Below, in pieces: positions 10,801 to 13,800 of a stretch of 64,000 nt of DNA (positions within the stretch are counted from its first letter, which is position 1; each line of letters opens with the position of its first letter). The stretch comes from Escherichia coli 042 (lineage in GTDB: Bacteria; Pseudomonadota; Gammaproteobacteria; Enterobacterales; Enterobacteriaceae), in assembly GCF_000027125.1 (NCBI RefSeq), contig NC_017626.1; one strand, 5' to 3'. Made by a program: the position numbers.

Positions 10801-13800
10801 GAGAGTGATAGCACCAGTTTTTTCATAATGTCCTCAACTGACAGTCTTTTTATAGGGAATATTTACAGGTTTGTTACACTTATCGTGCCATAAAATTGAC
10901 CATCAAGGCAAAATATCCCGCCCCGTTAGACGTATTATTTTTCATTAAAAATGCTTAAGTATGCATTTCAATGCACCACGATAGTGCAACAAACCTGGCG
11001 TGCACCATGATGATCATTCCATCAGGTACAGTTTCCCTGCGACGTATCAGTCACCGTAGACATTAAAGTCGAAATACTTTTTCGCCATCTTGTCGTAGGT
11101 ACCGTCCTGACGCAGCTCGCCAAGCGCCTTATTAAACGCCGCCGTCAGTTCAGCATCATCTTTACGTAGCCCTACACCGGTACCGTCACCGAAGTATTTT
11201 TTGTCTTTCACTGATGAGCCAGCAAAGGCGAACTCTTTACCAGCAGGTTGCTTGAGGAATCCTTCGCTGGCCGCCACTTCATCCTGCAGTGCGGCATCCA
11301 GACGTCCTGCAGCCAGATCGGAATAGACCAAATCCTGGTTGGCATAGGCCACCACATCCACGCCTTTGCTACGCCAGGTCTCGTTAGCGTAAGCTTCCTG
11401 GGTTGATCCCTGCAGCACACCCACATGTTTACCTTTCAGTGAATCCAGCGTTGGCTGAATCGGCGAACCTTTGGCGGCAATCAAACGAGAATCTGCGGCG
11501 TACAGCTTGTCGGAGAAGGCAATCTCCTGCTGACGTTTATCGGTAATGGAAAGCGACGAAATAATGGCGTCGATTTTTTTCGCTTTCAGTGAGGGGATCA
11601 GCGCGTCAAAGTCACTGGCAACCCAGGTACATTTCACCTGCATCCGTTTGCACATCTCGTTACCCAGATCGATATCAAAGCCAACAAAGTCACCTTTGGC
11701 ATCTTTCGATGAGAACGGCGCATAGGTGGTATCGGTTCCGATACGTACCGTCTCCGGTAGCGCCGCATAGCTGGAAGCCGCTGCGGAGAGACCGACTAAC
11801 AAAGACAGAGCGAGAATCGACTTCTTCATACATAACCCTCAAGTGAAAATGGCTTTTTTATGTTGTGTATTGTGTTGTGTGTTTGCAGGCTCTTTCATGC
11901 AGGTCTTATGCCATCTTGCCGACAGCAGTAACATTCAACGTTAAATATGTTAATAAGACGTTGTATTATTGTCCTGAAATTGAAGATAGCAGGTATGGCG
12001 GTTGAATCGCAGCGTTTCGATTCATAGAAAGGAACAAAATGTCGAGGATTTGATCGCGGTTGCAAAATTGCCCTGAAACAGGGCAACAGCGGAGTTATGC
12101 GCCCTGCCAGCGGGCAAAGAGATCTTCAGGAAGGGTTATCGTAAACTGGTCAAGAACACGATTAACCGTCTGATTTATCACATCATCAAGCGACTGCGGG
12201 CGATGATAAAACGCCGGAACGGGAGGCATAATCACTGCACCGATTTCTGCCGCCTGGGTCATTAAACGCAGATGGCCTAAGTGCAATGGTGTTTCACGCA
12301 CGCAGAGCACCAGCGGGCGACGCTCTTTCAGCACAACATCTGCCGCACGGGTCAGTAAACCATCAGTATAGCTATGGACAATGCCGGACAGGGTTTTGAT
12401 TGAACAGGGTAAAATCACCATCCCCAGCGTCTGGAAAGAACCAGAAGAGATGCTGGCAGCAATATCGCGCGCATCATGCGTGACATCGGCTAATGCCTGC
12501 ACTTCGCGCAGGGAAAAATCCGTTTCAAGAGATAAGGTCTGGCGCGCTGCCTGGCTCATCACCAGATGCGTTTCAACATCTGCGACATCGCGCAGAACCT
12601 GTAATAAGCGCACGCCATAAATCGCGCCGCTGGCACCGCTGATGCCTACAATAAGTCGTTTCATAAATAGTTGCCCTGTCAGACTTGCTGGCAGACTTTG
12701 CAGGATTTCGGCAGGAGTTGCAAGTCAGGGTGCCAGACCGGCACCCTGAGCGAAGGCATCATCCTTCGTTATGCATTTCGAGATTTTCCACTTCGTTCTG
12801 ACGTTGCACTGCTTTGGCGTCGTCATTACGTAAAGTATCGAGGAAATCGAGGTAGCCCTGATCAACATCTTTGGTGACGTAGACGCCGTTGAACACCGAG
12901 CATTCAAACTGCTGGATATCCGGGTTTTCAGCGCGAACGGCTTCGATCAGATCGTTCAGATCCTGGAAAATCAACCCGTCAGCACCGATGATCTGGCGAA
13001 TTTCATCTACTTCGCGACCGTGAGCAATCAGTTCCGTGGCGCTCGGCATATCAATACCATAAACGTTCGGGAAGCGAATTTCCGGTGCCGCCGAGGCGAG
13101 GTACACTTTCTTCGCTCCGGCTTCGCGTGCCATCTCGATAATCTGCTCAGAAGTGGTGCCACGGACGATGGAGTCGTCGACCAGCAGAACGTTTTTATCG
13201 CGGAACTCGGCGCGGTTGGCGTTCAGTTTACGGCGCACGGACTTACGACGCAGCTGCTGACCCGGCATGATGAAGGTGCGGCCAACATAGCGGTTTTTAA
13301 CGAAGCCCTGACGGTACGGTTTGCCCAGAATACGCGCGATTTCCAGCGCGATATCACAAGAGGTTTCCGGGATCGGAATCACCACGTCGATATCCAGATC
13401 TTCCCATTCGCGGGCAATTTTCTCGCCCAGTTTGGTGCCCATATTCACGCGGGCGCTGTAAACGGAAATTTTGTCGATGAACGAGTCCGGGCGAGCAAAG
13501 TATACATACTCAAACAGGCACGGATTGCTGACCGGATTGTCAGCACATTGACGGGTAAACAACTGCCCTTCTTCAGTGATGTAAATCGCTTCGCCCGGCG
13601 CGACGTCACGCAGGAAATCAAAGCCCAGCGTATCGAGCGCTACGCTTTCGGAAGCGACCATATATTCTGTGCGGTTCTCGTCAATATCACGTTTTCCCAG
13701 TACCAGCGGACGAATCCCGTTTGGATCGCGGAAAGCAACCATACCGTGGCCGATAATCATCGCCACACAGGCATACGCGCCGCGGATTAAGCGGTTTGTA

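Follow-up and report, generated by a model that had tools for sequence, protein, structure and literature searches.

The subject of this work is the putative sigma-54 promoter of argT in Escherichia coli 042, which we examined in a stretch of 64,000 nucleotides from contig NC_017626.1 (NCBI RefSeq assembly GCF_000027125.1); this whole stretch is referred to below as the window. The gene argT lies on the minus strand of the window, in the order dedA-accD-folC-dedD-cvpA-purF-ubiX-argT-hisJQMP, and the motif in question lies in the intergenic region between ubiX and argT. The coordinates of the features discussed below are collected in Table 1.

Table 1. Features of the argT region, in window coordinates
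Feature	Position	Strand	Basis or remark
ubiX, open reading frame upstream of argT	12095-12664	-	
Palindrome TGCCCGCTGGCAGGGCG, centre -221, overlapping the last ubiX codons	12100..12116	-	8/12 here
Palindrome TGCCCTGTTTCAGGGCA, centre -190, candidate NtrC site and possible ubiX terminator hairpin	12069..12085	-	10/12 to TGCACY-N5-RGTGCA
Near-invariant block GATCAAATCCTCGACATTT, between palindromes and promoter	12037..12055	-	Conservation
Conserved A/T-rich block ACAACGTCTTATTAACATATTTAACG, -77..-52 from the sigma-54 start	11939..11964	-	Conservation
Equivalent of the K-12 sigma-70 start	11919	-	G in the window, T in K-12
Sigma-54 core promoter argTp, ATGGCATAAGACCTGCA	11898..11914	-	First rank by scoring matrix; identical to published sigma-54 chromatin immunoprecipitation sites; GG/GC invariant in 81/81 species
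Predicted sigma-54 start	11887	-	Motif centre 11906 minus 19; 58-nt 5' untranslated region
C/A-rich first part of the 5' untranslated region, UGCAAACACACAACACAAUACACAACAU, target of GcvB seed R1	11860..11887	-	Duplex energy; conserved
Shine-Dalgarno sequence GAGGG, 6 nt before the ATG	11836..11840	-	Invariant in the 81-species alignment
argT coding sequence, lysine/arginine/ornithine-binding periplasmic protein, 260 aa	11047..11829	-	ATG at 11829
Sigma-54-like motif ATGGCACGATAAGTGTA of hisJ	10891..10875	-	Rank 5 in the window by scoring matrix

The -24/-12 motif upstream of argT

The motif reads TGGCAT-AAGAC-CTGCA on the minus strand and occupies positions 11913..11898, with TGGCAT at 11913-11908 and CTGCA at 11902-11898; its context on that strand is ggcaagATGGCATAAGACCTGCATGaaagagcc. 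Exactly 10 nt lie between the -24 GG (11912-11911) and the -12 GC (11900-11899). The motif has the same orientation as argT, extends from -84 to -69 relative to the ATG, and its predicted start lies 58 nt before that codon. The first-pass annotation had proposed a minus-strand TGGCAT-N5-CTGCA with GG-N10-GC spacing within 11830-11950, some 70-85 nt upstream of argT, and our measurements agree with it in both the motif and the distance.

The exact pattern matches once in 64 kb, against 0.06 matches expected from shuffles. Compared with the consensus TGGCAC-N5-TTGCW, the core has 2 mismatches in 11 specified bases, and a loose search of the window with 2 mismatches allowed returned 20 matches versus 28 expected, that is, no enrichment; a bare consensus match at this level proves little. 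The first-pass annotation had also suggested a sigma-54 promoter scan, for which we used a PSSM (position-specific scoring matrix) derived from the 28 sigma-54 motifs printed in a study by chromatin immunoprecipitation with sequencing (ChIP-seq; Bonocora 2015), the argT motif being excluded. The argT site scores 15.6 bits, the training sites ranging from 9.7 to 21.1 (median 16.05), and ranks first among the ~128,000 positions on both strands of the window; shuffled windows yield 0.37 matches of this quality each. Taken alone, the sequence is suggestive of a sigma-54 site but not decisive. What raises the site above the chance level is where it lies and how it is oriented, the fact that it does not vary in 80 other species, and the published ChIP results for the identical sequence.

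For the conservation analysis, we collected 80 orthologous loci, one per species of Enterobacteriaceae, which together with the window make 81 sequences; the genera include Escherichia, Citrobacter, Salmonella, Enterobacter, Klebsiella, Raoultella, Kosakonia, Pluralibacter, Trabulsiella and Franconibacter. A match to TGGCA[C/T]-N5-NTGC[A/T] was found 66-105 nt upstream of the argT ATG in all of the other species (80/80). The GG and GC cores are unchanged in 81/81 sequences, and the N5 spacer between them drifts (AAGAC, AAAAC, AAAAG, GGTAA, GAGAC); judged from the alignment, fixed cores with a variable spacer are the pattern expected for a -24/-12 promoter. Between the window and K-12, there are no substitutions in the 85 nt comprising the core and the 5' untranslated region (5'UTR), and 11 in the 183 nt that precede the 17-mer, two of which fall in the -10/start stretch of a reported sigma-70 promoter. 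In both K-12 (argTp, b2310) and Salmonella Typhimurium (argTr, STM2355), the 17-19 nt core (ATGGCATAAGACCTGCATG), the 58-nt distance from start to ATG and the 5'UTR are identical to those in the window, and the flanking genes are also the same, ubiX upstream and hisJQMP downstream.

Evidence for occupancy by sigma-54 and NtrC, and for dependence on rpoN and on nitrogen regulation (Ntr), is found in the literature. In K-12, the sequence ATGGCATAAGACCTGCA upstream of argT was identified by sigma-54 ChIP-seq as site OS22, with a fold-above-threshold (FAT) value of 12 and a predicted start 58 nt from argT (Bonocora 2015, PMC4591121). In Salmonella LT2, TGGCATAAGACCTGCATG upstream of argT was enriched in ChIP followed by microarray hybridization (ChIP-chip), and argT showed a 3.5-fold rpoN-dependent induction, with NtrC named as the activator (Samuels 2013, PMC3844500); the entry for argT in that paper gives the promoter status as "experimentally shown", crediting Ames & Nikaido 1985. 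In addition, a peak of RpoN genomic SELEX (systematic evolution of ligands by exponential enrichment) lies within the argT/ubiX spacer (Shimada 2021), and NtrC ChIP-seq gave peaks at argT (5.4-fold) and at hisJQMP (23.7-fold) (Brown 2014). Reporter constructs respond accordingly: argTp-gfp was the strongest among the sigma-54 promoters tested (Ma 2020), and argTp-lacZ at the lac locus was up 2.4-fold in a glnK mutant (Wang 2016). A statement in a review, where Schmitz 1988 is cited for it, also supports sigma-54/NtrC control of argT.

The proposal of a nitrogen-regulated sigma-54 promoter is thus borne out for the sigma-54 element by ChIP-seq in K-12, by ChIP-chip with rpoN dependence in Salmonella and by RpoN genomic SELEX, and for NtrC regulation by the NtrC ChIP-seq peak and the Ntr-responsive reporters. 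We put at about 0.93 the probability that we are dealing with the sigma-54 (-24/-12) promoter of argT, known as argTp. Note that this promoter is already known, that argT is an accepted member of the NtrC/sigma-54 regulon, and that the first-pass interpretation is the accepted one.

Predicted start site, leader and candidate NtrC sites

The start position given in Table 1 is a prediction that follows the rule of Bonocora 2015 (motif centre + 19), and it yields the same 58-nt distance as in K-12. Beginning at this predicted +1, the G/U-rich R1 region of GcvB (taken from K-12) pairs contiguously with +1..+28 of the UTR; the duplex energy of the argT UTR with GcvB is -66.9 kcal/mol, versus -39.0 +/- 4.7 in shuffled UTRs. 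The C/A-rich argT leader is already known as a GcvB target: argT is a verified R1 target, with binding upstream of its ribosome-binding site (RBS), and is a listed member of the group of GcvB-targeted leaders (dppA, oppA, gltI, livJ/K) that carry a C/A-rich stretch complementary to R1 upstream of the RBS.

The two palindromes listed in Table 1 lie 31 bp apart. To survey NtrC sites, we recorded the best NtrC-like site in the interval -300..-60 of each of the 81 sequences, with a positional tolerance of +/- 3 nt; a profile of mean score by position was dropped, being blurred by indels. The best site falls at -190 or -221 in nearly all 81 sequences. A score of at least 10/12 at one or both of these positions was obtained in 77/81 species, and at both in 28, with a background of ~1e-4 per position. 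The -221 palindrome, which has a low score in the window, reaches 10-12/12 in 43/81 species. In other genera, the sites at -190/-221 are near consensus (11-12/12), for example, TGCGCCACGATGGTGCA, TGCACCTGCAGGGTGCA and TGCACTAATATAGTGCA, with variable central five bases; the -190 palindrome in particular reads TGCGCCACGATGGTGCA and similar. In many genera, among them Enterobacter and Klebsiella, the end of ubiX, including its stop codon, is overlapped by a near-consensus palindrome (e.g. TGCACCTGCAGGGTGCA, then TGA); the variable C-terminus of UbiX thus contains, within its coding sequence, a putative regulatory site for argT, the gene downstream.

The arrangement resembles that of glnAp2, the archetypal NtrC/sigma-54 promoter, in its GG-N10-GC core and in its tandem palindromes about three helical turns apart (32 bp in glnA, 31 bp in argT). 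The NtrC sites of glnAp2 are located at -108/-140. The argT candidates are further upstream (-190/-221), their scores in Escherichia are lower (10/12 + 8/12 versus 11/12 + 11/12), and the NtrC ChIP enrichment at argT is ~13-fold lower.

The 198-bp argTp fragment of Ma 2020 starts at 12085, exactly where the -190 palindrome begins, and ends at 11888, one base short of the predicted start. Since this fragment is active, the -190 site and the core are enough for high activity on a plasmid, a conclusion limited by the reported sigma-70 start that the fragment also includes. In the data of Brown 2014, the NtrC peak bin lies on the promoter side, 137-169 bp from the two known sites at glnA and 160-191 bp from the palindromes at argT, which is the same geometry, and the peak at hisJ lies directly on its palindrome. 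We rejected the peak position as a means of locating the argT activator site, the calibration being ambiguous between the offset at glnA and the coincidence at hisJ. On balance, we somewhat favour the view that NtrC acts from -190/-221.

The -190 palindrome may double as the terminator of ubiX. It folds into a stable RNA hairpin (-15.1 kcal/mol; 12066-12087, minus strand) that lies directly behind ubiX and has UUUU after it. The hairpin is under the threshold of 5 T in our terminator scan, which made no call on the relevant strand, and the T-run is gone in several genera (GGGCAAAACTGC). The A>C/T>G changes from the NtrC consensus at -190 keep the RNA stem intact.

Proposed mode of action and its alternatives

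In the mechanism that we propose, RNA polymerase containing sigma-54 would bind TGGCAT-N5-CTGCA as a closed complex that is unable to start transcription alone. Under nitrogen limitation, phosphorylated NtrC would oligomerise on the upstream palindromes, for which those at -190 and -221 are the best candidates, loop to the promoter and open the closed complex by ATP hydrolysis. Transcription would then begin near 11887 and produce the 58-nt leader, the C/A-rich 5' end of which would be repressed by GcvB with Hfq. As long as NtrC is not active, the closed complex sitting on the promoter would also block a weak sigma-70 start ~32 nt upstream. Both the exact start and the sites used by NtrC are what we infer in this scheme; neither is likely to surprise a specialist.

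Several observations weigh against this reading. The 81 species are related, and the conservation counts are not counts of independent events. In Escherichia, the palindromes score 10/12 and 8/12 and are degenerate, positions 4 and 14 showing symmetric changes (A>C and T>G), and a terminator hairpin explains the -190 palindrome equally well. At argT, NtrC gave a weak ChIP peak (5.4-fold, versus 23.7-fold at hisJ and 71-fold at glnA). The fragment of Ma 2020 also holds the sigma-70 start, and its activity is not purely sigma-54 driven. In 2015, EcoCyc classed the argT promoter as "predicted" (Bonocora 2015, PMC4591121), and we found no directly mapped start under nitrogen limitation in the accessible literature. 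Finally, under the conditions of Schaefer 2015, expression of argT in K-12 is higher without rpoN.

The last of these observations is the basis of the alternative that survives best, according to which the site serves mainly for "parking" of sigma-54: the closed complex would repress or roadblock a sigma-70 promoter from which most argT transcripts originate, and NtrC would play a minor part. In K-12, the sigma-54 motif occupies +6..+22 of a sigma-70 start that lies ~32 nt upstream and is repressed by the sigma-54 holoenzyme; argT RNA with rpoN is 23% of the level without rpoN, and sigma-54 cut sigma-70 initiation by 10-60% in vitro (Schaefer 2015). In the window, however, both the last base of the putative -10 (at 11925, C versus T in K-12) and the +1 are altered, so that the best sigma-70 hexamers read TTAACA-17-TACTGC, the -10 of K-12 being TACTGT, and a sigma-70 scan of the window found no promoter match on the minus strand here. 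Nowhere in the spacer is conservation lower than in the reported -10/start stretch, and this holds within Escherichia as well. These features argue for a sigma-70 promoter that is weak or lineage-specific, whereas the core of the sigma-54 element does not vary in 81 species and Ntr activation induces argT. Moreover, repression by the closed complex is compatible with the mechanism proposed above; a dual promoter would combine both roles, and parking would complement NtrC-dependent activation without replacing it. As the principal function of the site, we consider parking rather doubtful. Given the two substitutions at the reported start and -10, strain 042 may have a weaker rpoN-independent basal promoter than K-12, or none.

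The first-pass annotation had also named rpoN-independent expression as a finding that would refute the element. Such expression does exist in K-12, from the sigma-70 start, and the sigma-54 element is not refuted by it, because the closed complex may repress the overlapping sigma-70 start; rpoN-independent expression is therefore not a valid refutation.

Another alternative concerns the position of the enhancer. The only perfect (12/12) NtrC palindrome in 64 kb, TGCACTATCGTGGTGCA (10988..10972, minus strand), lies in the argT-hisJ spacer, and argTp of Escherichia might be driven mainly from this site (10972-10988), ~0.9 kb downstream of the start, the palindromes at -190/-221 being mostly terminator or relics. 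NtrC enhancers can act over kilobase distances and from downstream positions. The spacer palindrome coincides with the strong, 23.7-fold NtrC ChIP peak, and in K-12 no sigma-54 peak has been reported at hisJ. The -12 element of the hisJ motif is degenerate in Escherichia: its TGGCAC is invariant in all genera, and Salmonella, Citrobacter and Enterobacter have GC as the -12 dinucleotide, where Escherichia has GT and Klebsiella has GG. However, the ATGGCACGATAAGTGTA motif has its predicted start ~116 nt downstream of the palindrome, a classic distance that suggests that the enhancer belongs to hisJ. In addition, the geometry of -190/-221 is kept across genera, and argTp fragments placed at the lac locus or on a plasmid, where the hisJ spacer is not nearby, are still Ntr-responsive or highly active. 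A mainly remote activation of argTp is therefore improbable in our estimation.

The hisJ (dhuA) upstream region, which belongs to the same transport system, resembles that of argT in having NtrC palindromes and a TGGCAC -24 element. The two differ in a reciprocal manner, since in Escherichia hisJ has a perfect enhancer and a degenerate -12, whereas argT combines a strong core with weak local NtrC sites. The hisJQMP operon has been described as controlled by sigma-70 and ArgR in exponential growth, and its spacer could represent a decaying sigma-54 promoter with an intact enhancer. A further scenario, which we rate as still less probable than remote activation itself, is that in Escherichia, Citrobacter and Salmonella the argT enhancer has drifted to TGCCC...GGGCA and acts mainly as the ubiX terminator, that hisJ keeps the perfect enhancer but in Escherichia without a sigma-54 -12, and that this enhancer is shared with or has been captured by argTp. 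If true, it would be a natural re-assignment of a bacterial enhancer between adjacent promoters.

The weakest alternative, a chance match to the sigma-54 consensus that has no function, can draw on the PSSM quality arising in about one third of shuffled 64-kb windows and on the lack of enrichment of loose matches, but it is effectively refuted by ChIP and conservation, namely by the published sigma-54 occupancy of the identical sequence in two species and by the invariance of the motif in 81 species within an otherwise drifting spacer, as well as by its correct orientation and distance to a nitrogen-scavenging gene.

The value of the NtrC-activated sigma-54 assignment lies mainly in correct annotation; the element is a textbook example from the nitrogen-scavenging (Ntr) regulon of enteric bacteria and is already an engineering part (Ma 2020). 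Beyond this, the comparative data point to -190 and -221 as the likely positions of the NtrC sites, and they show much tighter constraint on the sigma-54 core and on the leader targeted by GcvB than on the reported sigma-70 start. The complementary pattern of argT (strong core, weak sites) and hisJ (perfect sites, weak core) could serve in the study of enhancer-promoter assignment.

Other features of the region

The two conserved blocks listed in Table 1, GATCAAATCCTCGACATTT and ACAACGTCTTATTAACATATTTAACG, are almost invariant in the 81 species and gave no match to the regulator sites that we tested. The former includes a GATC Dam site. The latter includes TTAACA, a possible -35 of the reported sigma-70 promoter, and may be a bending or architectural site. 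Between the enhancer and the promoter, no match to the IHF consensus was found within 1 mismatch. A search for Rfam families in 10700-12300 detected no known RNA family at E <= 1. A 63-aa open reading frame across the spacer (11895-12086, minus strand) was rejected as a gene; a frame of at least 55 codons is open in only 7/80 species.

When tested on positions 11000-12700, the locus matches in 5,425 of 5,426 complete E. coli genomes. The identity is 99.9% to E. coli GN25 (isolated from night heron faeces in China) alone and ~97% to nearly all others; the lineage of E. coli to which the window belongs is thus a divergent one.

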